Shown: one piece after another, positions 5,314 to 62,846 of the stretch | Layout of the letters: each line of letters begins with the position of its first letter | Position numbering within the stretch: the first letter of the stretch is position 1 | Origin: Acinetobacter phage SH-Ab 15599 | Sequence record: MH517022.1 | DNA: 64,000 nt | Direction: 5' to 3' (one strand) | Notes under the pieces: model-generated | What the model was told of the DNA's origin: nothing | What the model saw: only the letters and a program-made list of their open reading frames with translations | Database searches by the model: none | Made by a program: the position numbers and the translations under genes

Positions 5314-5342
5314 TTTACTTCCTACGTTAAAAAGTTAATAAT
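5314..5342 (+). promoter_or_regulatory. Early promoter ccacTTTACT-N17-aataat
   Basis: Matches the recurring promoter architecture. Followed by a leader containing ctcatcggagta before the ATG at 5419. Confidence 0.5.
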
Positions 5343-7884: not shown

Positions 7885-8577
7885 ATGCATACATTTTGTA
7901 AGAACCGCAACGAACAACCAAAAACAACTGCAGTGTCATCTGTAATGAGCGGTTTGTTTGAATTTTGTGAAGCTATGGACAGCCGTAACCCTCCATCTGA
8001 GTTCATTATCAAAGACCGCAATATTGAATTGTTTCATTACAATGCGAAAATTGGTGTTACCAGAACAGCTGCTACTCAACATGAAGAAATTAAGGGAGAT
8101 GTTTTCACTACAACAGACCAATTGATTATTCACGGTACAAACTGTCTAGGGGTAATGGGGGCTGGGTTCGCTAATGTAGTAAAATATCGTTATCCAGATG
8201 TATATGATGAATATCAATTACATTGTCGCAAGAACATGTCTTTTGTTATTTTGGGTACAGTTCAATTTGTGAAATCTGAATGCATGGACAAGAAGATAAT
8301 TGGCAATGTCTTTACTCAAGAGAGTGTAGCAGGTCGAGTTGCTGGTCGCCCTTTCAAGTACAGAGCATTCATGTTAGCTATGGCAGATGTAGTGAAATAT
8401 TGCAAAGCAAATGGTCTCACTTCTTTTTCAATGCCTCGTATTGGATCTGATCTAGGGGGAGGAGACTGGGAGGTCATTAAACATATCCTTTGGTTCATGT
8501 TCCATAATACAGGGATTAAACCAAATGTATATGTTCTAGAGCGCCCTGCATTTGGTATGTTCAAAGGGGATAAATGA
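7885..8577 (+). CDS. Macro-domain protein (ADP-ribose binding or processing)
   Basis: IIHGTNCLGVMGAGFANVV matches the macro signature (VNAAN...GGGGV..AI). A second glycine-rich block FSMPRIGSDLGGGDWEV is present. True start probably at an internal Met. Confidence 0.6.
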   Translation: MHTFCKNRNEQPKTTAVSSVMSGLFEFCEAMDSRNPPSEFIIKDRNIELFHYNAKIGVTRTAATQHEEIKGDVFTTTDQLIIHGTNCLGVMGAGFANVVKYRYPDVYDEYQLHCRKNMSFVILGTVQFVKSECMDKKIIGNVFTQESVAGRVAGRPFKYRAFMLAMADVVKYCKANGLTSFSMPRIGSDLGGGDWEVIKHILWFMFHNTGIKPNVYVLERPAFGMFKGDK

Positions 8578-8960: not shown

Positions 8961-9926
8961 ATGGAACAACGAAATATTGAACAAATTGATCATAAGAATG
9001 GAGTTAACAAAATTCTTGTCGGTTGGATCATCTTCTTCATTATTGAACGTCAGAAGATTTTGAAACGCAAACAAGCGGGACAGACTCCATATACTGAAGA
9101 TCCAATTTTCAATGAATATCGATTTTGTAATGTAGACCGCGAAGATGATCGAGTTACAACTTGGATCAGAGATAACATCCGCGTTCCATATGCTGATCAT
9201 AAAGACCTTTGGTTGATGTTAGCGCTTGCTCGTTGGATTAACTGGCCACCTACTCTTGCCGAATTAGTTGAAAGCAAATACTGGTTTGGCAAACCCGACT
9301 TCTCATTACAGGGTTTAGCCGACGTAATGCTAGAGCGTCAAAAACGGGGTGAAAAGATTTACACTGGGTCTTATATGATCCGAGCTGAATCAGACAAAAA
9401 TTCGCCATTTATAGACAAAACTAAACATGAGTTCGTTTGTCTGAAGGTAATCGGACAATTGGTAGAAGACCGAGAACGTATTGAGGCAGTTCTCAATAAA
9501 CCAGATTGCACACTTCAAGAGTTCAACCACTTGATAACAAGTTACGTCAATTGGGGCGGCTTCATGTCATATGAGCTCGTAACTGATCTGAATCATACTC
9601 GTTATCTTGAGAATGCTTCTGATCGTTACACTTGGTTGAATCCGGGCCCTGGGTTTGTACGCGGAGCCAACCGTCTTATGGGTTTACCTCTGAATGGTAA
9701 TCTCAGTGAAAAGGCTTCTAATGAATACGCTCTTCAAGTAATTGAGCATGCTCATAAGCTATACGATGAGGGTGTTATCCCAAATGACCTCATTGATAAA
9801 TCTCAAATTGATATGCGTTGTATTGAGTCTGCTCATTGTGAAATGGACAAATACCTACGCGTGTTAACTGGAGAAGGTAAACCGAGAGCGAAATTTCACT
9901 CTCATGAACAGTATTACAACATTTAA
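8961..9926 (+). CDS. Hypothetical protein, 321 aa (candidate DNA or nucleotide modification enzyme, inferred from context only)
   Basis: Large ORF immediately upstream of the TS-family gene. No motif recognised. Confidence 0.5.
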   Translation: MEQRNIEQIDHKNGVNKILVGWIIFFIIERQKILKRKQAGQTPYTEDPIFNEYRFCNVDREDDRVTTWIRDNIRVPYADHKDLWLMLALARWINWPPTLAELVESKYWFGKPDFSLQGLADVMLERQKRGEKIYTGSYMIRAESDKNSPFIDKTKHEFVCLKVIGQLVEDRERIEAVLNKPDCTLQEFNHLITSYVNWGGFMSYELVTDLNHTRYLENASDRYTWLNPGPGFVRGANRLMGLPLNGNLSEKASNEYALQVIEHAHKLYDEGVIPNDLIDKSQIDMRCIESAHCEMDKYLRVLTGEGKPRAKFHSHEQYYNI

Positions 9927-10019: not shown

Positions 10020-11147
10020 ATGCCAGCCGCCTATCCTTTGTTTATTCGAGGTGCAACTATCAATGAAACGGTCTATAATGCTATCAAAGCAATCATGGAA
10101 AACGGGTCAGAAATTGAAACCCGTAATGGTTCAGCTAAGTTCTTAAATGATTTAACTCTTCAAATCGATGATCCACGCCAGCGTCATCTCAGCCTTAAAG
10201 GGCGTACATCTAACATCTTTCAAATGATGGCTGAAACCTTCTGGGTGATGGCTGGTCATAGTCAAGTGTATAATTATCTCAATTTCTTTTTACCACGCGC
10301 TGTTAATTATAGCGATGATGGTAAAACTTGGCACGGCGCATATGGTCCGCGTCTGTATTGTTATAATCAGATGGAAGACTTGAGAGCAACATTTGTTCGA
10401 GAAGGTAAATCAACGCGCCGCGCTATTCTGATGATTGCGGATCCATCTATTGATAATTTGGATTATATCAGAAGCACTTATCAGTCTGAAACTCCTAAAG
10501 ACATACCATGTAACCGAGAAATTCATTTCTACATTACAGACAATGAATTCCACTGTAAAGTGATTCAACGTTCTGGTGATATGATCTTTGGTACGGGTTC
10601 TATCAATCCATTTGAATTTACATTCCTTCAAGAGTGTATCTATACCCGTCTGATTGAATTGCCTGGGTTTGAAGATGTAAAATTGGGTCATTACCGTTGG
10701 CACGTAACAAACGCTCATATCTATTCAGATCATTTCCAACAAGCTGAAAATATCATTACATCTCATCAGGTTCTAGAGGCGAGAGATTCTGAAGTAATGA
10801 GTATGAAGTGCTTATATAATAGAGAGGAGATGCACGAAATCATAACGGAAGTTGAGAATCTTATCTCAATACCTAATCCAGATTTCCTCATTGAAAAAGT
10901 AAAGAACTTATATCCAATGAGCGATTTTGTTGAACCAATTGAACTTTATCGTTTATTAGTTAGAACATATGCTATCGCAAAACGTTTGAAGACTCTAAAA
11001 TCAGACAAGAAATTAGTTCTTCAATTACCAACAATCAATAATGATTTGTATTATGCCATAACTGAAAGTACATTCCTCAATTTTGAAATTGTACATGGCT
11101 CATATACAAAATATATTTTTAAACCAAGTGACTCTATCGGAGCGTAA
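10020..11147 (+). CDS. Thymidylate-synthase-family pyrimidine hydroxymethylase (gp42-like dCMP or dUMP hydroxymethylase) with a roughly 100-aa C-terminal extension
   Basis: TS-fold motifs: RRAILMIAD, catalytic PC in DIPCNREIHFY, VIQRSGD, and HIYSDH aligned to TS GDTHLYSNH. Cys is followed by Asn rather than His, as in T4 gp42. Confidence 0.75.
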   Translation: MPAAYPLFIRGATINETVYNAIKAIMENGSEIETRNGSAKFLNDLTLQIDDPRQRHLSLKGRTSNIFQMMAETFWVMAGHSQVYNYLNFFLPRAVNYSDDGKTWHGAYGPRLYCYNQMEDLRATFVREGKSTRRAILMIADPSIDNLDYIRSTYQSETPKDIPCNREIHFYITDNEFHCKVIQRSGDMIFGTGSINPFEFTFLQECIYTRLIELPGFEDVKLGHYRWHVTNAHIYSDHFQQAENIITSHQVLEARDSEVMSMKCLYNREEMHEIITEVENLISIPNPDFLIEKVKNLYPMSDFVEPIELYRLLVRTYAIAKRLKTLKSDKKLVLQLPTINNDLYYAITESTFLNFEIVHGSYTKYIFKPSDSIGA

Positions 11148-18839: not shown

Positions 18840-18868
18840 GAGGGAGCTATATGCTCCCTTGATTTTTT
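18840..18868 (+). terminator. Rho-independent terminator (gggagc-tatat-gctccc plus ttgatttttt)
   Basis: Hairpin followed by a T run after the 1282-aa gene. Confidence 0.7.
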
Positions 18869-18919
18869 ATTATTACACTATTTTATATTATAATTTATTT
18901 GCCCATTTGGAGATACAGA

Positions 18920-20308
18920 ATGAACGTTCATGAAATAATTCAAGCAACAAAGGCTGCTAAAGGTTCAAACAATAAGATTGGATTGTTGAACAATAACAGC
19001 AATAACAAATTGTTGGAAAACTTTTTGGCCACAACATATGATACCCGTGTATCATTTTATGTAAACAAATTTACAATGGGGGAACCCTCTGTTCAAGCCT
19101 ATGACGATATTGAAGTTGAGAATATGCTAGACTTCGTTCAATCATTGTCAGAACGCTTACTCACTGGTAACGCTGCCTTAGAAGCAATTACAGAGTTTAC
19201 TGGTCAATTGTCTGCTGAAGGTCAATCTTTATTCAACATGTTGATCAAACGCGACATTAAAGCAGGTGTTGCTGCAGGTACATTAATCAAAGTCTGGCCA
19301 AAGTCTATTTTTATTGAACCGTATCAACGTTGCTGTCTTGCTAAAGATACCAAAACTGATCTTCGTAACTGGGGCATGTATATCTCTCAGTTGAAGGCTG
19401 ACGGGATGTTCTCTTCTGCTAGTTGTTCAACTGAAATTGGTCATATTGCAAGCCGCGCTGGTACAATCTACCCTAAGAGTGCAGCATTTGATTTGGTGAA
19501 CTCAGAATTACAATCGCACGCTCATTTGGAAGCATTTCCAGGGGTTCTGGTTGGAGATTGTACTGTTGAAGGTGAGTTGATTGTTGTAAAAGATGGTAAA
19601 GAGTTACTCCGCGCTGAATCAAACGGTATGTTGAACTCATTACAACAGTCTGGCGAAGCTCTGCCTGAAGGTTATGACCTTGTTTATCATGTTTGGGATA
19701 TCCTTCCAACTGCGCGACGTACCTATAAGGGTACATTCAATGTAGCTTACAAACAACGCTTTGACGTAATTGAACGTTTGTTCGGTCAGGCTGGTGTCCG
19801 CGTGAAACCAATTGAAACCAAATTCTTCAATACATATGCTGAATGTGTGGCGCACTTCTTGGAAACAATCGGTCTTGGAAAAGAAGGTACAATCATCAAA
19901 CATCCATCAGCAACTTGGATGGACGGCGATAACCCTCTCCAAATCAAGATGAAGATTGAAGCTGAGTGTGAGCTACGTGTGAAAGGTTTCAATCCAGCTG
20001 AAGAAGCCTCGAAGTATGAACATCAATTTGGATCATTACAGTGTGAATCAGAAGATGGTTTGTTGGCAGTAGGCGTTTCATCTGGTTTGACTGACGCAAT
20101 GCGTACTGAACTTCATGCTATGGGAGACTCTCTGATTGAGTGCGTCATTACAGTTAAGTTTAATGACGTCATGCTTCCTAAAGAAGATCAAAACAAACAT
20201 AGTCTATTCCTACCTCGATTCGTTGAGTTGCGCCTAGATAAATCTTCAGCCGACTCGCTTCCACGTATTTTTGACATCTTTGAAGACGCTAAAAAGAATG
20301 CTTCGTGA
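18920..20308 (+). CDS. 30: ATP-dependent DNA ligase
   Basis: Adenylation motif KADG within SQLKADGMF. Size of about 460 aa resembles T4 gp30. Start placed at the ATG after ggag. Confidence 0.8.
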   Translation: MNVHEIIQATKAAKGSNNKIGLLNNNSNNKLLENFLATTYDTRVSFYVNKFTMGEPSVQAYDDIEVENMLDFVQSLSERLLTGNAALEAITEFTGQLSAEGQSLFNMLIKRDIKAGVAAGTLIKVWPKSIFIEPYQRCCLAKDTKTDLRNWGMYISQLKADGMFSSASCSTEIGHIASRAGTIYPKSAAFDLVNSELQSHAHLEAFPGVLVGDCTVEGELIVVKDGKELLRAESNGMLNSLQQSGEALPEGYDLVYHVWDILPTARRTYKGTFNVAYKQRFDVIERLFGQAGVRVKPIETKFFNTYAECVAHFLETIGLGKEGTIIKHPSATWMDGDNPLQIKMKIEAECELRVKGFNPAEEASKYEHQFGSLQCESEDGLLAVGVSSGLTDAMRTELHAMGDSLIECVITVKFNDVMLPKEDQNKHSLFLPRFVELRLDKSSADSLPRIFDIFEDAKKNAS

Positions 20309-33755: not shown

Positions 33756-34127
33756 ATGCTTTTAACAATGGATAACATTTCTAATTTTGTATCTGAAAAT
33801 TCAGAAGTTATGAACCTTCAATCTGTCTTAGAAACATTAGGATTCCGTGGCGCAGGTAACCAAGTTGCTTTTGGTATACTTTCTAAACGAGTTATTTTTG
33901 GCGCTCAATTTTTAAAAATGATGGGCGTTAACCCGAGTAAAGCAAAATCTTTAAACCCTCAATTCAAGTTTGTTGAATGTGAATATATTGAAGAGCCACT
34001 AGATTTCTCTCAATTCCAACCTGTTGGTCGTATGGAGTCAAGCTTTACAGTATATGATATTAGCAAACTGGGTGATGTATTTGTATTGCGGGCGCAGAAC
34101 GGTTGTAAAGCAATAGTAACAATGTAA
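33756..34127 (+). CDS. Hypothetical protein, 123 aa
   Basis: ORF behind a promoter plus RBS, ended by a bidirectional terminator. Confidence 0.45.
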   Translation: MLLTMDNISNFVSENSEVMNLQSVLETLGFRGAGNQVAFGILSKRVIFGAQFLKMMGVNPSKAKSLNPQFKFVECEYIEEPLDFSQFQPVGRMESSFTVYDISKLGDVFVLRAQNGCKAIVTM

Positions 34128-34159
34128 TAAAAAGCCCCTCAGGTGAGGGGCTTTTCTTT
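34126..34159. terminator. Bidirectional terminator at the convergence point of the two arms (gcccctc-aggt-gaggggc)
   Basis: A-tract upstream and a T-tract downstream. A nearly identical hairpin occurs at 40188-40205. Confidence 0.75.
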
Positions 34160-34814: not shown

Positions 34815-35147
34815 ATGAAAATCTCATTAGAGACTAACCAAAGATTCGATCTATCATTAAAATCGCCTCTTAATATTACAACCGATCTCCTAGAGGCAAT
34901 CAAAGCTGAGAAATGTAAATTCATTGATATAGAAGTAGAAAAGAAAGTCATAGATGTTCAATATCGTACCAAAACTGGTATCTTTCTGGGTGTTATGATT
35001 ATTAAAAAATCAAATGGCGGTATTGAATTGATCATAGATAATGACGGAGAAAAGATTAAGAACCTACACAACCTTACACATGAAGAGCTATTAGCAGAAC
35101 TTGAGACATTGCCTATCGCCAGATATGTTTATCTCGGTACACTATAA
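34815..35147 (+). CDS. Hypothetical protein, 110 aa
   Basis: ORF with the conserved leader and RBS. Confidence 0.4.
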   Translation: MKISLETNQRFDLSLKSPLNITTDLLEAIKAEKCKFIDIEVEKKVIDVQYRTKTGIFLGVMIIKKSNGGIELIIDNDGEKIKNLHNLTHEELLAELETLPIARYVYLGTL

Positions 35148-38424: not shown

Positions 38425-39185
38425 TATTTGTAAATGTCTGTATAACGATATGGACCATTTACTTCTAATTTGTCAGATAACAAATTAGTCTTCTCCCTCT
38501 TTTGAACAGTTTCGTTTACAAACTTCATGATTGGTTCTATTGTATCTTGACCGTTCAAATCTGTTTCGTCAAGACCCAAGAGCTTATCAATTTTATGATA
38601 ACCAATTTCTGTTGGTTCTTTCTTAGACCCCTTTACAAAGAACAAAATTATGTTGATAACTGTACAAAAGAATACAAGAAACCAAAAGCCATGAACCCAA
38701 GTAGGTTCTTCCGCTGTATTACGCAACATAATAAGAATTGGCCAGACGATAGCCGTGTACCACATCCAGATGTAATTGCGAGAGACGTATTTTTGAGCAT
38801 ATTCAGAATATTCAACCCAGATGTTTGGATCGTTGAATCTCACTTTCAGTTCATCTGTATTTGGATTGGAGTTGACTAGACCTAGGATGAATACAATCAT
38901 TTCTGTCGGATCAGTGGCGTCTTCCAAACTAACAATAGACTTGGAACCCAAGAAATCGTCTATTTCTTGACGCTTTTTCAGAGCTTGTATAACAGAATCT
39001 GGGGCGCAGACAAGACCGTTCAGGAGTATAGTCTTCTCCACTAGCTCTCCTAGAAGCTTAGACATATTACCGTGGTTCATTTCAACGCAACGGCGAAATG
39101 AAGCTGCCGCGCGATTTTGTAAAGCTTTCATATCCGTATTAGTTATGAATATGTTTGGTAAACCAAAAGTTTTATTGTTACTCAT
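38391..39185 (-). CDS. Membrane protein, 264 aa
   Basis: Hydrophobic helices: YIWMWYTAIVWPILIML and FWFLVFFCTVINIILFFV. Confidence 0.45.
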   Translation of the reverse strand: MSNNKTFGLPNIFITNTDMKALQNRAAASFRRCVEMNHGNMSKLLGELVEKTILLNGLVCAPDSVIQALKKRQEIDDFLGSKSIVSLEDATDPTEMIVFILGLVNSNPNTDELKVRFNDPNIWVEYSEYAQKYVSRNYIWMWYTAIVWPILIMLRNTAEEPTWVHGFWFLVFFCTVINIILFFVKGSKKEPTEIGYHKIDKLLGLDETDLNGQDTIEPIMKFVNETVQKREKTNLLSDKLEVNGPYRYTDIYKYCLMLKYFKGE

Positions 39186-39721
39186 GAGCGTCTCACCAAG
39201 AATGCACCTTTGTTACCAACAGTTTCAACGTCATGCGGGTAAATGGTTTTAAACCATTTGTTTTCTGGAATTGGAACGCCGCCTGTAACACAACCTTCAA
39301 CGCGCACATTCTCTACAAATGAACCGTCAGGGAGATATGTAGGTTTATTGGCGAAATAGATTTGTTTACCGTCAGCTTGTACAGCTAGGAATCTGTAACG
39401 CTTACTTGGAGCGTATCTGAACAAGTCTCTATCCCATTCAGGTTCTGGCGGTTGTTCTATTTCAATTTGACAGATATGACTAATAGGAATGATATGATCT
39501 GGAAAATCTTCTTCAGGCTTGTTAGGGGTTGGAGAGTATTTCCAAGCGCCCTTTTCATAAAGCAGATGAAGAACCTGACTACAAGAACCTAGACAGATGT
39601 AATGACCTTCGTCAATTTCATCTTCTGGTGAATATTCTTTGAATAGAAGCATTTTACCCTCGTTAGGAGTTAGCAATTTAATGGAATTATAATGTAATAG
39701 AGGTCTATAGACAAAAATCAA
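39182..39721 (-). CDS. Hypothetical protein, 179 aa
   Basis: ORF with overlapping stop and start. Confidence 0.45.
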   Translation of the reverse strand: MIFVYRPLLHYNSIKLLTPNEGKMLLFKEYSPEDEIDEGHYICLGSCSQVLHLLYEKGAWKYSPTPNKPEEDFPDHIIPISHICQIEIEQPPEPEWDRDLFRYAPSKRYRFLAVQADGKQIYFANKPTYLPDGSFVENVRVEGCVTGGVPIPENKWFKTIYPHDVETVGNKGAFLVRRS

Positions 39722-39732
39722 ATATTGCCCAC

Positions 39733-39761
39733 TTTACTTGTTTGATTTTTACCATTATACT
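39733..39761 (+). promoter_or_regulatory. Early promoter cccacTTTACT-N17-TATACT
   Basis: Leader aactctcaacggagatt sits 10 nt before the ATG at 39811. Confidence 0.5.
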
Positions 39762-39810
39762 ATATCTGTACCAACAACGGTACGTTTGCTAACTCTCAAC
39801 GGAGATTATA

Positions 39811-40182
39811 ATGATTACTTTCAAGTGCGTGCGTCAACCCCAAGTCGTTCTTCATGAACCAGTTGACTCGTTAAATTTATTTGATAAAATTACATTTGAT
39901 TGTTATTTTGTAAATGAATTTCTAAAGAACAATGAATACAATTTAGAAGTATCAATGACTGAGAACCTCAAATATGTATCTTTCTTCGTAAGAAACAAGA
40001 TCAACTTTGATGGTATGTCTATCAAATTAGAAGGAGACAGAGTGATCTGCAAACACGTATATCTGAAAACCAATTACAATTTCTCAAGAGAAGGTTTTTA
40101 TGAATTCATGCAACAAGAAGGTATAAAGAGTGGAGCTGGGTATTTTGAGATTGTCTCTGATCTGATAAGAGCAATCAAATAA
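39811..40182 (+). CDS. Hypothetical protein, 123 aa
   Basis: Plus-strand ORF inside the minus arm, with its own promoter, leader and terminator. Confidence 0.45.
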   Translation: MITFKCVRQPQVVLHEPVDSLNLFDKITFDCYFVNEFLKNNEYNLEVSMTENLKYVSFFVRNKINFDGMSIKLEGDRVICKHVYLKTNYNFSREGFYEFMQQEGIKSGAGYFEIVSDLIRAIK

Positions 40183-40213
40183 AAGAAGCCCCTCAAGTGA
40201 GGGGCTTTTCTTT
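40183..40213. terminator. Bidirectional terminator (gcccctc-aagt-gaggggc), near-identical to the one at 34134
   Basis: Same hairpin with a single loop change. A-tract and T-tract on the two sides. Confidence 0.75.
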
Positions 40214-41249
40214 AGAAGTCTATTCTAAATTTGTTCCGCTGTAATCCACTCTTAATCAGATCACTGTCGACAATACTCAACTGTCTTGCGCCTCTCTCAT
40301 TTGAATACTCAAACGGAGTTCTTGGTAGTTGTCCAACCTTCATTAAAAAGTCCAATACATAAGAATAAGATTCGATATTCAATGTATGAGCCTTTTCATT
40401 AACCAACTTGTGGAATACAGTTGGACACTCTCTCATTACGGCGCATAAAACGGAATGAGACACGACCGTAAGATCATTGCGTTGTCTAGGAGACCAGTTA
40501 ATACTATTCAACCAAGCATTGAAATCTTTGAATAGTTTTGTCTCTTGACGTTTATCTTGAGATTTGAAATCAAATACGTCTTTACGACAGTATGGAGAAT
40601 GGTATAACCATCTGAAGAAATCGGAGTGATTATTGAATGAATTGTCTACATCATAATAAGGTAAATGTTCGAGTTCAAAAATATTCAAGAACTGATACCA
40701 GTTGTTCAGGATGAGAGTTTCATGTTTCTTACCAGCTGTGGTGAATGTATAATATAAGCCGTCTGGTTTCAAAGATAGATTATATTTTTCAACCATACGT
40801 TGAAGAATTTGAGAAGCCATTCCATATGAATAGAAGCAACGAGCAAAGTTAATCTCAGACTCATTGAAGAACTGAGCGTCCACGCTGTACATTCTACCAG
40901 ATTGAGCGTTCATCTTTACTAGCATACACTGCTCATTAATGAATTGAACATATTGATTTTCACGCCCTTGAATTCTGTCATTATCTTTCATGAAGTCTTC
41001 AATTGGACTACGCCATAGAGTCATATCTGGATTATCTGAATGACTATATGCACAGGCCGTTAACAACTTCATTTTATTACGGCCTTTATCTATAATGAAA
41101 CAATCAACGTCGCCGTGGTCTTCCTTCTCTACGAAGTTGCGAGGGAACATGATTTCAGTATAACCAAATAAGTCTTTGAACATACGTTCGACTTTACGAA
41201 GCTCGGCTGTAGAGAGTCTTTCTAGACCAACAAATGCTTTACCGCCCAT
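40212..41249 (-). CDS. Hypothetical protein with a possible nucleotidyltransferase-like acidic motif
   Basis: 345 aa. FPRNFVEKEDHGDVDCFIID could be an NTase DxD-like motif. Speculative. No further motifs recognised. Confidence 0.35.
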   Translation of the reverse strand: MGGKAFVGLERLSTAELRKVERMFKDLFGYTEIMFPRNFVEKEDHGDVDCFIIDKGRNKMKLLTACAYSHSDNPDMTLWRSPIEDFMKDNDRIQGRENQYVQFINEQCMLVKMNAQSGRMYSVDAQFFNESEINFARCFYSYGMASQILQRMVEKYNLSLKPDGLYYTFTTAGKKHETLILNNWYQFLNIFELEHLPYYDVDNSFNNHSDFFRWLYHSPYCRKDVFDFKSQDKRQETKLFKDFNAWLNSINWSPRQRNDLTVVSHSVLCAVMRECPTVFHKLVNEKAHTLNIESYSYVLDFLMKVGQLPRTPFEYSNERGARQLSIVDSDLIKSGLQRNKFRIDF

Positions 41250-41394
41250 TTTGAAAACCTCTTATAACAATTAGCGTTATCATATTGTATTGTCTAAACC
41301 ATATCAAATAATCAATGAATTGTTTTAGCCAATCCAACCCTCAGAATGAGTGATTTTAACAATTAAAATTTTATAGTATTTTTTAATTTGATTA

Positions 41395-41423
41395 TTTACT
41401 TTTCATGAATCATCCATTATAAT
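41395..41423 (+). promoter_or_regulatory. Early promoter TTTACT-N17-TATAAT upstream of the HU-like gene
   Basis: Perfect -10. Leader ends acttttggagaaatgac before the ATG. Confidence 0.55.
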
Positions 41424-41490
41424 GGATTTCCATAACAAGGGAATAATTCTCTGTTTACTTTAAATGTCAAACAACTTTTGGAGAAATGAC

Positions 41491-41766
41491 ATGAACCGTA
41501 CTGACTTAATCGCTGCTGTAGCAAAAGAAACTGGTAACACTCAAGCTGTTGTTGAAGCTGTAATTAAAGCATCTGAAGGTAAAATTGCTGAAGCCCTAAT
41601 TGCTGGCGAAAACGTACAACTTGTTGGCTTTGGTACTTTTAAATCAACGCCTAAAGAAGCAACAACTGCTCGTAACCCTAAAACTGGCGAAGAAGTGGCA
41701 GTTGCAGCTACAAACCGCGTTACATTCAGCGTTTCAGATGCTCTGAAAGAACGTTTGAAAAAATAA
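41491..41766 (+). CDS. HU or IHF-family (DNABII) DNA-binding protein
   Basis: MNRTDLIAAVAKETG...GENVQLVGFGTFKSTPKEATTARNPKTGEEVAVAATNRVTF is the canonical HU signature (GFGTF, R.ARNP.TGE). Confidence 0.8.
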   Translation: MNRTDLIAAVAKETGNTQAVVEAVIKASEGKIAEALIAGENVQLVGFGTFKSTPKEATTARNPKTGEEVAVAATNRVTFSVSDALKERLKK

Positions 41767-41776
41767 TTTGATGCTG

Positions 41777-41816
41777 GGCATTAAAAAAGAGGCTGTTAAG
41801 CCTCTTTTTTAATGCC
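41777..41816. terminator. Very strong bidirectional terminator (18-bp perfect stem ggcattaaaaaagaggct / agcctcttttttaatgcc)
   Basis: Perfect inverted repeat with a 4-nt loop. A-tracts and T-tracts are built into the stem. Sits between the convergent HU gene and the 41862 gene. Confidence 0.8.
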
Positions 41817-41861
41817 TAGAATAAACAGACAAAATAAAAGGAGCCAAAAGGCTCCTTAGTT

Positions 41862-42119
41862 TTAAACAATATGCGGAGGTTCGACTAATGGTTCAGGGTC
41901 GCCCGTTTTACGCTTCGCTAATGTAGTCTGAAGCTCGATGATACGAGTGTTGAGTCTATCATTCTCATCCCGCTCATCCTCCAGTTCAGCTTCTAGAGCA
42001 ATAATATGTAATTGAGATTTTTTAAGCTCGCGTTTCAGGAACTTATTTTCTGACACTAGATGTTCTCCGTAAGCGAGTATGAAGAACGCAATAATGAAAC
42101 CTAAGATATAGACCATCAT
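41862..42119 (-). CDS. Small membrane coiled-coil protein (possible i-spanin or FtsB-like)
   Basis: N-terminal TM segment MMVYILGFIIAFFILA, then a coiled coil, then a Pro-rich tail. Confidence 0.4.
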   Translation of the reverse strand: MMVYILGFIIAFFILAYGEHLVSENKFLKRELKKSQLHIIALEAELEDERDENDRLNTRIIELQTTLAKRKTGDPEPLVEPPHIV

Positions 42120-42445
42120 GTGTTTAATCCTATAACAATAGCGACCAGCACCATAATATGAAGTATTTGATCAGTTTTGAAACTAATCCGTTTGTTGTTC
42201 TTACTGTAATCAATAATGAAGTGCGATACATACATTAACAGAGCAGCAGCTATATTACCCGTAACAACCCAGACCAACAGAGCGTGGATAGCGCAGTGAG
42301 CTGATAGTACGATGTACCATTGAGCAAATTTTTCTTTACTCTTATTGATTGCAATGTAATCATTCTGTAGTGCAAAGTCCCCTAGACAATGAAGACAGTA
42401 CAAAATAAATAACATCCCGAGTGGGTTAAGACTGTAAAAGTCCAT
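42116..42445 (-). CDS. Membrane protein (DUF3307-like)
   Basis: HCLGDFALQ motif, three or four hydrophobic helices. Confidence 0.4.
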   Translation of the reverse strand: MDFYSLNPLGMLFILYCLHCLGDFALQNDYIAINKSKEKFAQWYIVLSAHCAIHALLVWVVTGNIAAALLMYVSHFIIDYSKNNKRISFKTDQILHIMVLVAIVIGLNT

Positions 42446-42454
42446 TTAATTTCC

Positions 42455-42480
42455 CCTTAAAAAGCCCCTCTCGGGGCTTC
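42455..42480 (-). terminator. Terminator hairpin agcccctc-tc-ggggct with a T-tract on the minus strand
   Basis: GC-rich hairpin downstream of the 42490 gene, in minus orientation. Confidence 0.55.
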
Positions 42481-42489
42481 CAATTATTG

Positions 42490-42996
42490 TTAAACAACGT
42501 GTTGATAAACGCCCGTCAAACGCTCCCGCGCTTCTTTGGCAGCTGTGATTTGAGATGTAGCTAATACAACAACCGCGTCTCGTTCAGGGTTGTTAGATTC
42601 TCTGATACGTAACCGCACCTCATCAGTTGGGGTTACAAATACATAAAGGTCCGCGCCTTCAAACCAACCCAAATAGAAATGAGAGTCTTTAATATCATCG
42701 TTTTTAAACATATGTTGTTTAGGAATTACACCAAGAGTCATTTTCAGATTATCTTCATCGACCAATTCCACTTTAGCGCTCTTAATTTCTAGACCGCCGT
42801 ACAATTCAAGAGATTCATACCCTTGAATTTGTTTATTGATATGTTCTTGAAGTTGAGCTACATCGTCTGGATGGAACTTCTCTCCAGCTTCTGTATATTT
42901 GTGTTTCACGTCTGCCAAGAGACGCGTTGCTTGTTCACAAAATACCAAAGTGGTCTCTTGGTTCTTGATTGTTTGTTCTTGTAGATCAGTGGACAT
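42490..42996 (-). CDS. Hypothetical protein, 168 aa
   Basis: ORF in the operon. Confidence 0.45.
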   Translation of the reverse strand: MSTDLQEQTIKNQETTLVFCEQATRLLADVKHKYTEAGEKFHPDDVAQLQEHINKQIQGYESLELYGGLEIKSAKVELVDEDNLKMTLGVIPKQHMFKNDDIKDSHFYLGWFEGADLYVFVTPTDEVRLRIRESNNPERDAVVVLATSQITAAKEARERLTGVYQHVV

Positions 42997-42998
42997 GT

Positions 42999-43958
42999 TT
43001 ACTCCGATTTGTTAACTGTATCCCAACGATACGTTGATAGTGTACAAATATCGCTTCCATTCATAAGGCTGAGTGAAATGATACCATTAGATAAATTGAA
43101 TTTACCAAAACAATAATATTGAGGACCAAATTCTATGTCTGTTAAATCAACATGAACAAAACGGCGATACGGGTTCTCCGGCAGACCACTCAGAATGAAT
43201 TCATCATTCTTTTTCTTAGCCAAAAGACCAGATAGAAACACCAGATTGTTATTATCATTGATAATAGGCATATTGAATGTTGATTTCAATAAAGTGTCCA
43301 GCAATGATGATCTGAAATCAATTCCTTCAATCTGGAATGTTACGTTGCTTCTAGGTCTACTTTCTTTCAATGTAGCAATAAGCTGGCGTATGGAGTTCAA
43401 CACTTCAATGAATATAATGTTATGGGACATATCTGTCGCATTTTTCAATGTAAGTTTATCAGTATTGAAATGGTCACCAATGAAGTGTAATTTGATATCA
43501 GAATCATCTTCATGATTTTGAGATTGTTTATGATTAATTGACCAGATACAACGGTTTATAGAACGTTCCAAAGCTTCTTTCAAGTTGTTTTTAGCAGGAT
43601 CATATGAGATGTTGAAATCTCGAATGATGAAATGCTCAACCTTGTCTTTGAGAGATGGCGTACCAACTACATTGTAAGCTTGTAGATCAATTTTGGGAAA
43701 GTTTTCAACCAATGATGAGACCAACTTGCGTTCAGCCTTATCGGTGGGTCTACGTGTAACAACAGAAGGCGCTTTCTGAGCTACTTTATCCAGAGTATTA
43801 GTTGTATTGCTACTCGACAAAGCGATCTCGTCAGCCCATAGTCTTACTGTAGAAAGCGGCATATCGTATTGTTTTGCTACCGTTCTAGCGTGTAAACCTT
43901 TCTTCAATGCAGCCTTCACTGCATCCTTAAACTCTTCTGTATAGCGTCGTTTTGACAT
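42999..43958 (-). CDS. Protein with an IS3-transposase-like N-terminal HTH fused to a 270-aa unknown domain
   Basis: MSKRRYTEEFKDAVKAALKKGLHARTVAKQYDMPLSTVRLWADE strongly resembles the HTH_Tnp_1 OrfA N-terminus. The rest is unrecognised and has no DDE motif. Confidence 0.5.
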   Translation of the reverse strand: MSKRRYTEEFKDAVKAALKKGLHARTVAKQYDMPLSTVRLWADEIALSSSNTTNTLDKVAQKAPSVVTRRPTDKAERKLVSSLVENFPKIDLQAYNVVGTPSLKDKVEHFIIRDFNISYDPAKNNLKEALERSINRCIWSINHKQSQNHEDDSDIKLHFIGDHFNTDKLTLKNATDMSHNIIFIEVLNSIRQLIATLKESRPRSNVTFQIEGIDFRSSLLDTLLKSTFNMPIINDNNNLVFLSGLLAKKKNDEFILSGLPENPYRRFVHVDLTDIEFGPQYYCFGKFNLSNGIISLSLMNGSDICTLSTYRWDTVNKSE

Positions 43959-44075
43959 GATACGTTTACCTGATAGTATGTATAACAGATATTATAATGT
44001 AAAATATATTGTTTTCATAAAATCAAGAAAGGAGACATCTCTGTCTCCTTTCAAGGTTTGTTGGATCATCTTCGA

Positions 44076-44661: not shown

Positions 44662-46308
44662 CTAGAAAAGGGAGTTAAGGCTGAATGAAGTCGGTGCCTT
44701 AGCCTCCCATTTGATTGCGACTAAAAAGTTTGTAAGTGGATTGATAAAACATTTACTGAATGCAGCATCTTTATCAATGAACTTCTCAAGATTAAACTCC
44801 TTCGGTAGTTGATCATCATACGCAATAACTTCCATACCAAACGGTGAGCCTTTTCTTAAAGGTAACACGTAGTATTTATTGCCGCTACGAAGTGGCATAA
44901 TTTGCGGTGCATCAACCTTAGTTAATAAGGTATTATGATTTATCGCCCCTTTAACATGATATGGGGTTCCTTTAACCGCAACGCCGTTACTGAGATAATC
45001 TTCAATATTGTTGATATTCTGAGCCGCCCCGTATTCATTGATATTACGAGATTTCATGAATTCAACTTCACACTTTGCTACAAAATCATGTAGTTCAGTT
45101 TTCTTCTCTTCAAGAGCCAATTGATAGCCCGTTTTCATCCACTCACGGCAGAACATTGGGTAGTTAGACTTGCGAGCCTCTAAACCAACGATTTTAAGCT
45201 TAGGAGTGGCGTAGCGCACGCCTTCGTTATCAGTTAATAACATAGCGTAACGCTTCTTGGTTGTAAAGATTGCTACCATAGCAATAGCTTCACGTTTGAA
45301 GAACAAAGCGTTGATTGGACAGTTATATGATGAAGCTAGTTCTTCAGCCCATTGAATGTATAGAGGTTCAATGGTTGTAGTCATCAATTCATCAAGCTTA
45401 TCTGTAATCTCAGAATCTGATAATTCGTCCCATCCAGAAGCCTTAACCACACCTTTGAACTCAGTATAGATCGAGTCAGTATCTCCATAGAAGCAATGGT
45501 CACCTTCAAGATTATAAGTTTTGTTGATCCATTCATTCAACTTAAACATAATATGTCGAGTTGAACATTGACCCGCAGTTGTAATAGCTTCAGCAATACG
45601 GATTTCAAAGTGGTCGGCGAAGTTTTCATTTGCAATCGCGCCATAACCCGCGTTTGCAGCAATCTTATGTGCGTGTTGGTTTGAGTCTCCGTTTTGGATT
45701 TTTGTTTCCCAAACATCATATTCTTTGTAATACGCTTCTGTCTTCTCTAATTGCTCATCCAAGTATTTTTTCTTGAAGGATTCAAGAGAACGTTCATCGT
45801 CTTTCATTGCCTTTTTAATGACCTTACGCGTATCATATAGGTCTTTGAATACACGGCGCAACAATGAAGGTTTTTCAGTCTTAAACATTGCAAGGTTTGG
45901 AGCCATACAGACTTTCAAACGTTTGAGAGTTTGGAACTGATATGGGGCTTCAAAGTAGATGTCCCAAATACCTTTACGCTCACGGAAACGTTGAGCATAT
46001 AAACGGGTGTATTGGGTTTGTTCTTCTTCCGGAATATCATCCATCTCTTGAGCCAGAGCGTCAAGAATCTTCTCTGTAATACCCCAAGGTACAAGCGTCT
46101 CAATACCCATGTTGAATTGTTGTGCCATATGCGGATAACCTATGTGTTCAGATGAGTTCGTGATTCTCACCTCGGAATTACATCCAGCTGTATGTCGCCA
46201 TACAGAGCAGACTATATCATCACCCACGTTATACGTTTGGTACGCTGTTGTAAGTAGCGCAGATGAGCTATACTCACCGTGTCTCCCGTTTCCATTTAAG
46301 CCATACAT
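44662..46308 (-). CDS. 43: DNA polymerase gp43, C-terminal fragment (family B palm, fingers and thumb)
   Basis: Motif B KIAANAGYGAIANENF and motif C YGDTDS. The track extends to 46323 through a GTG. The first ATG is at 46308, one nt after the stop of the HNH gene. Confidence 0.85.
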   Translation of the reverse strand: MYGLNGNGRHGEYSSSALLTTAYQTYNVGDDIVCSVWRHTAGCNSEVRITNSSEHIGYPHMAQQFNMGIETLVPWGITEKILDALAQEMDDIPEEEQTQYTRLYAQRFRERKGIWDIYFEAPYQFQTLKRLKVCMAPNLAMFKTEKPSLLRRVFKDLYDTRKVIKKAMKDDERSLESFKKKYLDEQLEKTEAYYKEYDVWETKIQNGDSNQHAHKIAANAGYGAIANENFADHFEIRIAEAITTAGQCSTRHIMFKLNEWINKTYNLEGDHCFYGDTDSIYTEFKGVVKASGWDELSDSEITDKLDELMTTTIEPLYIQWAEELASSYNCPINALFFKREAIAMVAIFTTKKRYAMLLTDNEGVRYATPKLKIVGLEARKSNYPMFCREWMKTGYQLALEEKKTELHDFVAKCEVEFMKSRNINEYGAAQNINNIEDYLSNGVAVKGTPYHVKGAINHNTLLTKVDAPQIMPLRSGNKYYVLPLRKGSPFGMEVIAYDDQLPKEFNLEKFIDKDAAFSKCFINPLTNFLVAIKWEAKAPTSFSLNSLF

Positions 46309-46309
46309 T

Positions 46310-47209
46310 TCAGGCACCCACACTTGGCTGTACTATGTCTTGCGACTGTCTAGTCGTTGAACCTTTCAGAATTTCTTTGATCTTTACAGTATAAACAGAA
46401 ACATCTAATCCTTTGAGATTTAATGGTCTGACGTAATTGGAAGTGAGAGCGCCGCTGTTAGTAAAAATCGCTTTACCATCAACATGAGCCTTTCTATAAA
46501 AATCGAACAATTGTTCTTCTGTCCAATTCTTAATTTCTTCTTTCTTACGTTCAAGACTAGCTTTGAATTTGTTCTTTCCTTCTTCAGATTGCATAGGGTT
46601 GTTTGTAGAGAACCCCTTGCCATCTAAATGATGAACTAATTCTCCAGAAGTATATCTTGGATCATTCTTTTCAGTCATGAATATATTCCCATCTTTGTCT
46701 TTTACAACAACTCGACCAGTCATATATTCTTTACTTTTTTGAACGATAGCTTTAGCAGTCTCTGCATCAGCGCCCATATATTTCTTCCCTTTCATATCAA
46801 GGCGTTGTACACCTTTCTTTGAAAGACTAATCTTTTGCTTCACATCTTCTCTTTTAGAAGGATTGTTTTCTCCGCTGTTTAGTTCTCTAGCTAATTTTCT
46901 TGCCGACTCACAATATTCAGCCCCATCTCTGGTTGTTACCATAAGATGATAGGCATATCCTGTAGATTGAGTCTTTGCACCTAGCATAAGAAGTCTATGT
47001 GCTTCCACGTGTTCTAATATAGATAATTCTACAATATTCCACTTGGCGTTTCTGTACTCATAAAAATCGCAGATTGGTAAAATATGATGGCGCTCAACAA
47101 CATCAGAACCTTTAGCAGATTGAATGTATTCAACGTATTGCTCTAGCAACGCGCTGTCTCCATTCTTATAAGTCTGCTTCAAAGCATCTAACATCTGTTT
47201 ACCGTTCAT
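46310..47209 (-). CDS. HNH homing endonuclease with NUMOD-like modules, inserted inside gene 43
   Basis: HHILPICDFYEYRNAKWNIVELSILEHVEAH is an HNH motif. GENNPSKREDVKQKISLSKKG is a NUMOD3-like repeat. Reading frame differs from both pol fragments. Confidence 0.8.
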   Translation of the reverse strand: MNGKQMLDALKQTYKNGDSALLEQYVEYIQSAKGSDVVERHHILPICDFYEYRNAKWNIVELSILEHVEAHRLLMLGAKTQSTGYAYHLMVTTRDGAEYCESARKLARELNSGENNPSKREDVKQKISLSKKGVQRLDMKGKKYMGADAETAKAIVQKSKEYMTGRVVVKDKDGNIFMTEKNDPRYTSGELVHHLDGKGFSTNNPMQSEEGKNKFKASLERKKEEIKNWTEEQLFDFYRKAHVDGKAIFTNSGALTSNYVRPLNLKGLDVSVYTVKIKEILKGSTTRQSQDIVQPSVGA

Positions 47210-47301
47210 AATCACTAACTCTGACTTGGCTGCTGATTGTCTCAGTGAGATTTCCCAGCAATTAAAGAGATTTTCATTGTGTTATTTCTAACACAAGCCC
47301 C

Positions 47302-48576
47302 CTATATGTTAAGGGCATTTGCATCGCTAGACATTACATTTTCATAACGCCCTGGGGTCACCTCTTTAACATAACCTCCGGCATAGTCTGGTTTTGAGTT
47401 TACGCGTGGACGAATTTCAGAAAACTCATTGTTACGCGCCCCGTAACCATACATGAGATATTGCCAAGGTAACACGGTTGCATTTGTATCATCTGGATTA
47501 CAGTGATACAAGAATGCTAATGTATACGCCAGTTGCAATAGTTTTGTTTTCTGAGCAATACGCAATACCAAGTTTACGTCGTGAATGTTATATCCAATAT
47601 AGTTTTGGTAATCTTTGATATAAAATTCTGTTAAGCTTGAGAACTCGCTATGATCAACCTTTTCTTCTTTGAGATAATGTTGAGCTGCAGTATTCAGCTT
47701 GTTGTTATCCAATTCAATAAAGCCGTGTTTTGCTACACTTTCTTTTAAGTCTAGGTTTGAAATACCTGAGATTGTAAATGTAACCTCTTCACCATATTTG
47801 CCGTTGAAGGTACGTTTGCGACAGTAACCATGAGGTGAAATACGATTCAGAATATCTCGACCCAACAGCTTATCAATGCGGTTACAGAAGTACGCAATAT
47901 CAAACGTATCACTGTTCCAACCTGAGATGTAGTCATATTGGTGGGATTCATACTGATCTACAAAATCATACAGAAGATCAATTTCATTATCATATCCAAC
48001 ATAGACAATGTCTTCTGGCTTGACCGTCTTACGAACTTGCTCAGGTAATTTGTTTACATCAAATGTACCCAAATCATGGCCTTGGAAATGCTCTAGACCT
48101 AACACATAGAACTTTTCAGTGAATGTATCATATGTTGTAATGGCTGTAATAGGGTATAAGGCTAATGCAGGATCAGGGAAGGGGCCAGGCTGAATTTTAC
48201 CGTCAGCAGTAATTGTACCAGATTCAACCTCAATATCGACCAATGCCCCTCTGATATATTTCATATCAAATTTGATTTCTTTTTCAGGGTAATGCTCTGC
48301 TGAGTATTGAGCTAATGGGTTATCAATACCGTAGATTTTGAAGTTGGGGATGTTCTTCATCTGCTCCATCCACTCTTCCATAGCGTAGTTGTTATCAAAC
48401 ACTATGCGTTCAAGAGGGATACCATTCAGAGACTTATAAGGACTATCAGCATTTGTAGATACGGTATACAAAGAAGGCTGAAAACTAATTTCACGCATCT
48501 TTCTCACGCCGTCTTCAACATAGCGCTCAAGAATGCGGTCTTTCTGTTTTGTTAGGTTGGTATAAAAGCGTTGCAT
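47302..48576 (-). CDS. 43: DNA polymerase gp43, N-terminal fragment (exonuclease domain up to motif A)
   Basis: MQRFYTNLTKQKDRILERYVEDGVRKMREISFQPSLYT parallels the T4 gp43 N-terminus. The fragment ends ...VMSSDANALNI at a TAG inside the motif-A (DxxSLYPS) position. Confidence 0.85.
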   Translation of the reverse strand: MQRFYTNLTKQKDRILERYVEDGVRKMREISFQPSLYTVSTNADSPYKSLNGIPLERIVFDNNYAMEEWMEQMKNIPNFKIYGIDNPLAQYSAEHYPEKEIKFDMKYIRGALVDIEVESGTITADGKIQPGPFPDPALALYPITAITTYDTFTEKFYVLGLEHFQGHDLGTFDVNKLPEQVRKTVKPEDIVYVGYDNEIDLLYDFVDQYESHQYDYISGWNSDTFDIAYFCNRIDKLLGRDILNRISPHGYCRKRTFNGKYGEEVTFTISGISNLDLKESVAKHGFIELDNNKLNTAAQHYLKEEKVDHSEFSSLTEFYIKDYQNYIGYNIHDVNLVLRIAQKTKLLQLAYTLAFLYHCNPDDTNATVLPWQYLMYGYGARNNEFSEIRPRVNSKPDYAGGYVKEVTPGRYENVMSSDANALNI

Positions 48577-48654: not shown

Positions 48655-49164
48655 ATGAAGCCGCCTGTTTATTCAAATGCTCAATCTAATAATGCTATGT
48701 GTATTATAGAGACCATGGAAAATGTTCAGTTCAAGCTTTATGACTTTCAACTCCCGATGCTATCTTTCAACTCAACAATTTTGGGCACTGATAGTAAGGT
48801 ACAAATCAGAGTACCAGGCACTCATGTAGAGTTTGATTTCCTCCAAATCAACTTCTTTGTAGATGAATTATGGGAAAACTACTTTGAATGTTACGATTGG
48901 TCTATGTTAACAATCGGTAGCCCTGACCCATTTGAACATACAAAAACCATTTCTATTGTTCCCCTAGATAGTAATAAGAACCCAGTTGGACGCGTCTTCG
49001 TCTTTTTAGATGCTCATATTATGAATATGGCACCTGTTCAATTAGACGGAGAAGGAGAAACAACTGATATCGTTATGGGATTAACAATTTCCTTCTCTGA
49101 AATGAAAGTTGAAAAATGGTTTGATGCAGATGGATCAACCAATGTAGTTATCTCCAAGGACTAA
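48655..49164 (+). CDS. Hypothetical protein, 169 aa
   Basis: Plus-strand ORF with RBS aaggaa. Confidence 0.4.
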   Translation: MKPPVYSNAQSNNAMCIIETMENVQFKLYDFQLPMLSFNSTILGTDSKVQIRVPGTHVEFDFLQINFFVDELWENYFECYDWSMLTIGSPDPFEHTKTISIVPLDSNKNPVGRVFVFLDAHIMNMAPVQLDGEGETTDIVMGLTISFSEMKVEKWFDADGSTNVVISKD

Positions 49165-62327: not shown

Positions 62328-62846
62328 TCAATTACTCCAAAGTGATTCGCTATAAGAAGCTCTCACATTCATTAAACAAATACCAAGATTATTATTTCCA
62401 AAGCCGTTCATACTAGTCCCCCAATATGAATCATGCCACCAATTGACTTCAATCAATGTCTTTGAACCCGTACTCAATAACAACTCTTTCAAGTCTGGGT
62501 TGTTATCAAATTTCTTTTGATTTAACAGTTGCATACAACGCAATCTGTTCTTCATGAAATCCATATCAACTGGATGTTCAAGTAAAAATTCTTTTGTCTC
62601 TGGAGAAGACATATGTTTCAAAGGAGCTGAAAACTTCTTGCTTTCTTGAGGGCTCATACCAGAAATAAGACGTTTAGTTTCATCTCTTCTGAACTTGAGA
62701 GCTTGATAAGCGGCTTCAGTTGAATGATAAGGAATATGTTTCCATTCTACAGGTATGTTGAGTACAAACATATTACTCAAGAACCGATATTCCTTAAAGA
62801 AGCCTCTAACTTCAATATCAGGATTAACAAACCATGGCTTAAACAT
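62328..62846 (-). CDS. NADAR (YbiA or DUF1768) domain protein
   Basis: FLSNMF, then STEAAYQALKF, then LLLSTGSKTLIEVNWWHDSYWGTSMNGFGNNNLGICLMNVRA. This matches the YbiA or NADAR consensus (F.SNF, SE.Y.QA.KF, LL.TG..LVE...D.YWG.G.G.N.LG.LLM.VR). Confidence 0.75.
   Translation of the reverse strand: MFKPWFVNPDIEVRGFFKEYRFLSNMFVLNIPVEWKHIPYHSTEAAYQALKFRRDETKRLISGMSPQESKKFSAPLKHMSSPETKEFLLEHPVDMDFMKNRLRCMQLLNQKKFDNNPDLKELLLSTGSKTLIEVNWWHDSYWGTSMNGFGNNNLGICLMNVRASYSESLWSN

Follow-up and report, generated by a model that had tools for sequence, protein, structure and literature searches.

A probable self-contained expression cassette for an HU-type DNA-binding protein in Acinetobacter phage SH-Ab 15599, whose DNA carries modified thymines

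Acinetobacter phage SH-Ab 15599 (record MH517022.1; in the NCBI taxonomy an unclassified member of the Ackermannviridae, within the Pantevenvirales) carries a small gene for an HU-type protein of the DNABII family in the 64,000-nucleotide (nt) stretch of DNA analysed here, which we refer to as the window. We consider it probable, at roughly 60%, that this locus works as a self-contained unit for expressing one gene, that of the phage's own HU-type protein; the whole cassette arrangement is conserved in phage nACB2, the sole close relative. The presumptive parts of the cassette are as follows.

41365–41394, plus strand: A/T-rich stretch, a possible UP element (93% A+T in the 30 nt that precede the -35 hexamer; function predicted)
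41395–41423, plus strand: sigma-70-type promoter-like site, TTTACT-17 nt-TATAAT; hexamers and spacing are unchanged in nACB2
41430–41490, plus strand: 5' leader of about 60 nt (start site predicted), with a Shine-Dalgarno sequence GGAG at 41480–41483
41491–41766, plus strand: coding sequence for a 91-residue HU-type DNABII protein, named 'DNA-binding protein HU-beta' in GenBank
41777–41816, both strands: predicted bidirectional intrinsic terminator with perfect 18-base-pair (bp) arms and a 4-nt loop, GGCATTAAAAAAGAGGCT-GTTA-AGCCTCTTTTTTAATGCC
41838–41857, minus strand: second, smaller terminator, belonging to the convergent 85-residue gene; with 41777–41816 it makes a tandem block to minus-strand transcription that would enter the HU gene

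The mechanically called open reading frame at this position runs from 41464 to 41766 on the plus strand, and we place the true start at the ATG at 41491, 7 nt past the GGAG, because the upstream ATG is closed by a stop codon in nACB2, the nACB2 coding sequence begins MNRTEL, and the database protein is 91 residues long. That database protein (P0001) begins MNRTDL and is 100% identical to the window protein, which ends in KERLKK. The product matches the Pfam family Bac_DNA_binding (PF00216) with 94 bits against a cut-off of 22.4 (E 6.8e-27), covering positions 1–89 of the 90 in the profile, and PHROG 379 at E 3e-29; the best matches in a PDB sequence search are HU proteins (E 1.6e-15). Its AlphaFold model (predicted local distance difference test score 93.7) has helices at residues 3–14, 18–37 and 83–90 and five strands, and is aligned by Foldseek with HU and IHF structures at template-modelling (TM) scores of 0.83–0.88 and a probability of 1.00. 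The initial annotation described a canonical DNABII protein with GFGTF and RNPKTGE motifs, and this is upheld: the motifs occupy residues 46–50 and 61–67, and the eight positions found invariant among 42 aligned sequences (M1, G46, F47, G48, F50, N62, P63 and F79) are all unchanged. The conserved residues of the DNA-binding arm, which were proposed as a check on the assignment, align as expected at the arm tip, with R61, N62 and P63 all present and P63 invariant in 139 of 139 HU sequences.

Assignment within the family is less specific than the GenBank name implies, as the NCBIfam equivalog cut-offs are all missed by a wide margin, both those for HU (HU-alpha 65.3 bits against 162, HU-beta 55 against 157) and those for IHF (IHF-alpha 62.6 bits against 111, IHF-beta 49–52 against 115–120). 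A search with an HU profile found a single DNABII gene in the window, and on length and gene number the protein is of the HU type; it is not a hupB ortholog, and "HU-beta" is to be read as "HU family". The nearly equal IHF-alpha and HU-alpha scores, and IHF chains that superpose on the model at TM scores up to 0.88, might instead favor a sequence-specific bender of the IHF kind acting at a few phage sites, such as the origin, the pac site or late promoters. This seems distinctly unlikely, since there is one gene and no alpha/beta pair, the 91-residue length is HU-like, and all of the equivalog cut-offs are missed; RNPKTGE is the IHF form of the motif, but it is also the majority form in the closest chromosomal HUs (consensus GRNPKTGE) and is therefore not diagnostic.

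The "consensus early promoter" of the initial annotation survives in part. The gene does have a promoter-like site of its own, with a consensus -10 hexamer, and it belongs to an over-represented class, but the -35 hexamer TTTACT agrees with TTGACA at only four of six positions. Allowing at most one mismatch, the window contains ten copies of TTTACT-17-TATAAT where 0.77 would be expected, and none of 100 shuffled sequences reaches ten. Every one of these sites is on the plus strand (at 397, 3843, 5314, 6703, 18866, 20462, 33666, 34753, 39733 and 41395), four of the ten carry the extended form CCAC-TTTACTT, and they mostly precede non-structural genes, DNA ligase for example (promoter at 18866, gene at 18899–20308). 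On the minus strand, each of four -35 variants combined with TATAAT over 16–18-nt spacers gives no more than two sites, and the minus-strand replication genes must therefore use another type of promoter. We take the TTTACT class to be early in timing and to resemble the T4 early consensus GTTTAC. Upstream of the A/T-rich stretch, a block CAATTAAAAT at about 41358–41367 is conserved in nACB2.

A possible 6-bp stem in the leader, formed by 41464–41469 with 41487–41492, would close around the Shine-Dalgarno sequence and take in the initial two nucleotides of the start codon; it reads AUGUCA/UGACAU in the window and AUGUCU/AGACAU in nACB2 (locus L001, approximately 5972–5977 with 5996–6001), which amounts to one compensatory change, and nACB2 is also conserved around the ribosome-binding site. 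The fold of the leader is not significant (z = 0.0). We dropped the idea that the leader or the terminator contains a structured RNA or one of a known family; their fold z-scores are 0.0 and -0.3, and all matches in Rfam are generic hairpins far under their gathering scores. A 16-bp perfect palindrome, ATCCATTATAATGGAT, is centred on the -10 hexamer at 41412–41427 and was considered as an operator; it is not conserved in nACB2, the window has other perfect palindromes, with 11-nt arms, and we treat it as chance.

At the other end of the gene, the perfect 18-bp, 40-nt bidirectional terminator previously predicted is indeed found at 41777–41816. It starts ten bases past the stop codon, is placed between the HU stop (41766) and the end of the convergent gene (41862), and has a core of GAGGCT-GTTA-AGCCTC between A6 and T6. 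No perfect hairpin in the 64 kilobases (kb) is longer (free energy -27.9; the runner-up, of 14 bp, follows the major capsid gene), and the fold of 41760–41870 has a z-score of -10.5. With a GC-rich inner stem and T6 on both strands, the hairpin therefore reads as a two-way terminator. The initial annotation also stressed that the gene is an isolated plus-strand unit inside the minus-strand arm; it is a plus-strand unit, but not a special one, as there are several cassettes of like design. Further plus-strand units among minus-strand genes lie at 39811–40182, 34815–35147 and 48655–49164, and other small plus-strand genes in the arm are equipped with this promoter, with a bidirectional A-tract/T-tract hairpin or with both, the two occurring together at 39811–40182 (hairpin at 40186–40207) and, at the arm boundary, at 33756–34127 (hairpin at 34130–34155).

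We envisage that host sigma-70 RNA polymerase would transcribe the HU gene at a high rate, and that the two downstream hairpins would keep this plus-strand transcription apart from the convergent minus-strand transcription of the 85-residue gene and beyond. The protein is presumably a homodimer, because only one DNABII gene is present, and would bend phage DNA without sequence specificity by inserting Pro63 of its beta-arms into the minor groove. It may serve as an accessory factor in replication, recombination, late transcription or packaging of a genome that contains alpha-1,3-diaminopropanyl-thymine (alpha-dapT).

Several points weigh against this interpretation. The promoter and the terminator are, as far as can be judged here, consensus matches only. 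At position 58 the window protein has a threonine (T58), an arginine in 126 of 139 HUs, and its arm contacts may be weaker than assumed. Its net charge (+2), arm charge (+2) and isoelectric point (9.1) are ordinary, at the 33rd to 57th percentile among 119 homologs (33rd for net charge), and give no global sign of special DNA chemistry. The HU gene is nowhere mentioned in the study that described the modification of this phage's DNA (PMC13458397). As to charge, both arm and body looked stripped by eye, and we considered charge depletion as an adaptation to cationic DNA; given the ordinary values among the 119 homologs this was abandoned.

Comparison with nACB2 speaks to the age of the cassette. 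The nACB2 protein (nACB2_042 in OQ032512) is likewise 91 residues long and is 62% identical to that of the window, and its gene has the same neighbors, strand, hexamers and 17-nt spacing; the HU proteins are more diverged than the DNA polymerases of the two phages, which are 79% identical. The nACB2 terminator is unrelated in sequence and of like design (A6-GCCCC-TTGC-GGGGC-T6). Both proteins have the rare residues K51, T53, P54 and D83, whereas nACB2 retains R58 in place of T58. When codon adaptation is calibrated on virion genes, the window HU gene ranks second among 69 open reading frames, and it has the lowest G+C content at third codon positions (GC3, 0.207); its codons include AAA in 9 of 9 cases, GAA in 9 of 9 and AAC in 5 of 5, and there is no AGA. 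The nACB2 gene similarly has the lowest GC3 among the 19 genes of its locus.

The closest cellular HUs are Clostridia-type chromosomal genes with identities of approximately 50–53% (about 51–53% by BLASTP and 50–51% over common alignment columns). These Firmicutes proteins (for example P0002, P0005 and P0013) are like the window protein in length and in the RNPKTGE motif, with 'RVTFS' in some; they differ in keeping K18, K19, R58 and K83 and in their mazG-hbs-yabO-yabP context, and are unrelated to the phage's host. In IMG/VR no relative exceeds 46% identity to the window HU, and a megablast of window positions 39000–44000 against a collection of 50,697 phage records, in which the phage's own record was apparently not included, gave no match.

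The suggestion in the initial annotation that the gene was possibly a recent acquisition is contradicted by these data: nACB2 has it at the same site, in the same orientation and with the same promoter hexamers, GC3 is at its lowest and codon adaptation nearly at its highest, and identity to bacterial proteins is about 51–53% at best. A recently captured cellular HU gene, or moron, that plays no phage-specific role would account for the private promoter and terminator and for an orientation opposite to that of the neighbors, but the design is common to other plus-strand genes of the phage, codon usage at this gene is the most phage-adapted of the region in both phages, and the nearest cellular proteins are of the Clostridia type and not from Acinetobacter. 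We regard such a capture as highly improbable; from these comparisons the cassette appears to be old.

The DNA on which the protein is expected to act is unusual. The hydroxymethylase locus with which the initial annotation associated the HU gene is real, comprising the first two of the following genes.

10020–11147, plus strand: candidate thymidylate-synthase-like dUMP hydroxymethylase (Pfam Thymidylat_synt, E 8e-12)
8961–9926, plus strand: protein with a 5-hydroxymethyldeoxyuridine (5-hmdU) DNA kinase domain (Pfam HMUDK_hel, E 6e-40)
4376–5251: weak match to amino-acid:DNA-transferase, part of the thymidine-hypermodification set

It was shown experimentally in 2026 that approximately 23% of the thymines in SH-Ab 15599 are alpha-dapT (PMC13458397), which is formed post-replication from 5-hmdU and is enriched at TG steps (PMC13458397).

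This setting brings in a tentative alternative, in which the protein resembles TF1 of phage SPO1 and prefers its own modified DNA, either the hydroxymethyluracil (hmU) intermediate or alpha-dapT at TG, over host DNA, regulating transcription or marking DNA for replication or packaging, with an acidic residue at position 83 that reads or tolerates the modified base. The dedicated architectural protein for modified DNA proposed in the initial annotation is of this kind; the comparative data neither establish nor exclude it, and we treat it as a reasonable hypothesis to which we would assign a rather low probability. The preference of TF1 for hmU DNA is said to be experimental, from papers of Geiduschek and Grove. 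Like the window protein, TF1 and its relatives (Okubovirus, CP-51 and EalM-132) are phage DNABII proteins associated with hmU-based DNA, with Q18, V or A at position 19, an acidic residue 83 and a gene near DNA polymerase (about 3 kb away in SH-Ab 15599), and the string 'TQVSV' is identical in TF1 and nACB2. Against this, TF1 is 32% identical to the window HU and has 99 residues with F61 and a 9-residue C-terminal tail, whereas the window protein has 91 residues, R61 and no tail. More generally, proteins of the TF1 type are 99–102 residues long with a C-terminal extension, and that of the window stops at the HU core; residue 61 is R in the window and nACB2, F in TF1, phi18, CP-51, EalM-132 and Nachito, and Y in SPO1L1. 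A mechanistic difficulty is that HU arms contact the minor groove, while the thymine modification sits in the major groove.

A correlation is seen at position 83, which is an aspartate in the window protein and is accompanied there by Q18 and A19. Among the first 139 HUs compared, lysine is present at position 18 in 119, at position 19 in 113 and at position 83 in 117, and an acidic residue 83 is found in six only: the window protein, nACB2, three classical Ackermannviridae, and TF1. The prediction made from this held on 8 new in-group and 7 new other-phage HUs. Glu83 is present without exception in the HUs of five more Ackermannviridae genera and of a second Okubovirus; the TF1 relatives CP-51 and Exiguobacterium phage EalM-132 have Glu83, Q18 and V19, whereas phage 0305phi8-36 has Lys83; and Lys or Ser occupies the position in SPbeta, Rhodobacter RC1, Aphanizomenon CL131, Agrobacterium OLIVR1, a 642-kb uncultured phage and a Ralstonia phage. 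A profile search of a 5.8-billion-protein database supplied 119 new HUs, 88 with lysine or a neutral residue at position 83 and 31 with Asp or Glu; judged by sequence these 31 all belong to the Ackermannviridae or TF1 type, and those that carry a name come from phages. In sum, residue 83 is acidic in 45 of 275 HUs and lysine in 203, with all 45 in SH-Ab 15599 and nACB2, classical Ackermannviridae or TF1-type phages and none among approximately 230 bacterial or other-phage HUs sampled, although the non-acidic sample is biased toward relatives of the queries and no more than three independent events underlie the 45. All three phage groups have hmU-based DNA; CP-51 carries an SPO1-type dUMP hydroxymethylase (PMC4528723), and the Ackermannviridae encode an HMdU synthase (PMC10791037).

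There are pattern breakers. Lysinibacillus phage LysYB2, which has a 5-HMUDK homolog and thymidylate-synthase-like genes, keeps K18, K19 and K83, and Nachito has S83; we therefore rejected acidic 83 as a feature of every phage whose DNA is hmU-derived and regard it as a strong tendency only. A strict link between HU and thymidine hypermodification was likewise dropped as a rule. PhiW-14, whose DNA contains alpha-putrescinyl-T, chemically the closest modification, and whose DNA polymerase is the next-closest after that of nACB2, has no DNABII gene by tblastn and profile search; and the records with a 5-HMUDK homolog are mainly those of Pseudomonas phages (about 70), a group that contains the M6-like hypermodifiers, whereas Pseudomonas phages hardly appear among the HU matches. 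Both observations lower the probability that the window protein is TF1-like.

Genomic position in two other phages is more favorable to it, as the HU genes of LysYB2 and SPO1 sit within a modification and replication module that includes hydroxymethylase or DNA polymerase genes. In LysYB2 (L043, 141–7714) the HU gene is immediately flanked by thymidylate-synthase-like genes on one side and DNA polymerase on the other, and the 5-HMUDK homolog ends 3.2 kb upstream of it; in SPO1 (L020, 641–3297) the neighbors of tf1 are gene 30 and gene 31, the latter encoding DNA polymerase.

According to reviews, Lys83 is one half of a Gly46–Lys83 "phosphate lock" for lateral DNA binding, and the K83A substitution lowers affinity. 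With an aspartate in place of the phosphate-lock lysine, and with K18 and K19 absent, the lateral, body-mediated DNA contacts of the window protein have therefore probably been lost. The loss of all three lysines in the window lineage and in TF1 suggests an arm-bending protein that has no hold on flanking DNA at its body, and the window HU would be a bender rather than a bundler. Because overall similarity does not group the three lineages, the acidic residue may be convergent. It is conceivable, if on present comparisons somewhat doubtful, that the HUs of hmU-DNA phages (SPO1/TF1-type, classical Ackermannviridae, and SH-Ab 15599 with nACB2) form a functional class set by acidic 83, possibly arisen repeatedly and retuned for hydroxymethyl- or amine-bearing thymines, through the lost lateral phosphate contacts or direct contact with the modification, so that they could tell their own genome from host DNA.

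The same features might be read as directed at the host, with the phage protein displacing or mixing with host HU and so disturbing, at an early stage of infection, the nucleoid, replication or transcription of Acinetobacter. Early and abundant synthesis is suggested by a promoter class of early type together with the very high codon adaptation, the dimer-core residues F47, F50 and F79 are conserved so that mixed dimers are conceivable, and the lost phosphate-lock lysine would leave such dimers defective in lateral DNA binding. We think this unlikely, since conservation of all of the arm-tip residues favors a working DNA binder over a mere poison.

Contrary to the initial annotation, phage HU homologs are not rare. 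A homolog is present in 424 of the 50,697 phage records; by host name these are mostly Salmonella, Klebsiella, Escherichia, Dickeya and Serratia phages of about 155–160 kb, which are Ackermannviridae, followed by Bacillus phages, some SPO1-like and others SPbeta-like. The gene is standard in the Ackermannviridae, and the conserved proteins of that family include a "putative histone like protein" and a "putative DNA binding protein" next to the helicase (PMC10892097). The 90–92-residue HUs of classical members (for example Menlow gp122, PhaxI, LIMEstone1 ORF095 and phiMAM1 gp104) come from the same virus family as the window protein and resemble it in fold, length, an MNRT start and an acidic residue 83; Menlow and LIMEstone1 also have an annotated terminator of the gene's own behind it. 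They differ in keeping K18 and in being only 38–44% identical to the window protein, below the best bacterial HUs. Their genes are also placed differently, upstream of helicase, RNase H, gp55 and gp47 and co-oriented with their neighbors (the helicase is immediately downstream of HU in Menlow, IME250, CRW-SP2, Bue1, Ag3 and phiMAM1), whereas the window gene has other neighbors.

A phylogeny against host and phage HUs had been proposed; the tree constructed here from phage and bacterial HUs recovers the window and nACB2 as a pair in 77 of 100 neighbor-joining bootstrap replicates and yields no supported wider grouping; the pair is joined to the classical group in 8 of 100 and to TF1 in 4 of 100. 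A profile of 37 classical-type HUs scores the window protein at 85 bits and unrelated HUs at 82–105, and on bacterial profiles the window protein scores 89–111. With these low bootstrap values, and profile scores like those of unrelated HUs, orthology with the classical Ackermannviridae HU or with TF1 was set aside as not demonstrable. A second, 167-residue 'histone family DNA-binding' gene, Vi01_008, occurs in Salmonella phage Vi01 (L017, 6626–7129) near topoisomerase II genes; the window HU has no match to it at E <= 1e-3.

The genes on either side of the cassette are both on the opposite strand.

40212–41249, minus strand: divergent neighbor of 345 residues, with nACB2_041 at the same position
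41862–42119, minus strand: convergent neighbor of 85 residues, a membrane/coiled-coil protein adjoining the HU gene downstream

A putative promoter for the 345-residue gene, TTGATA-17-TATGAT at 41307–41279 on the minus strand, lies in the intergenic region that it has in common with the HU promoter. The protein has a weak match to a PHROG 'DNA polymerase' family (E 1e-14 over residues 1–238) and a GDVD motif near its N-terminus, and gave no Pfam match and no PDB relative.

SH-Ab 15599 had also been called a T4-like phage, which applies only in the broad sense of its place in the Ackermannviridae, in the order Pantevenvirales, and its structural genes of the gp19, gp20, gp21, gp22 and gp23 types; its replication and regulation genes in the window include gp45, gp44, gp62, RegA, topoisomerase II and UvsY. 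The family-B DNA polymerase is encoded in two genes on the minus strand (44662–48576), with the exonuclease part at 47302–48576 and the polymerase part at 44662–46323, separated by a gene for a 301-residue HNH homing endonuclease (46310–47215; PHROG 12434, E 5e-61); the nACB2 polymerase is split identically. Two domain families tied to ADP-ribose metabolism are represented, by a macro-domain protein (7885–8577, plus strand; Pfam E 1e-5) and a NADAR-domain protein (62328–62846, minus strand; E 8e-19). The open reading frame with the highest codon adaptation in the window (0.785) encodes 226 residues at 5419–6099 on the plus strand, has its own TTTACT-type promoter at 5314, and gave no match in Pfam, NCBIfam or PHROGs; by its codon usage and position it would be an abundant protein amid replication and DNA-modification genes.

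The HU gene itself changes little, as it belongs to a known family, was already annotated and is standard in the Ackermannviridae, and its expression architecture is real and conserved but typical of SH-Ab 15599. Its value is in the setting, since SH-Ab 15599 now offers an experimental system in which the thymine modification is defined, bears a positive charge and falls at TG sites. The HU protein is the obvious candidate for handling alpha-dapT DNA, one that the modification study did not consider (PMC13458397), and the charge reversal at position 83 makes the modified-DNA hypothesis testable, and with it the old question, raised by TF1, of how a minor-groove-binding HU can prefer DNA that is modified in the major groove.

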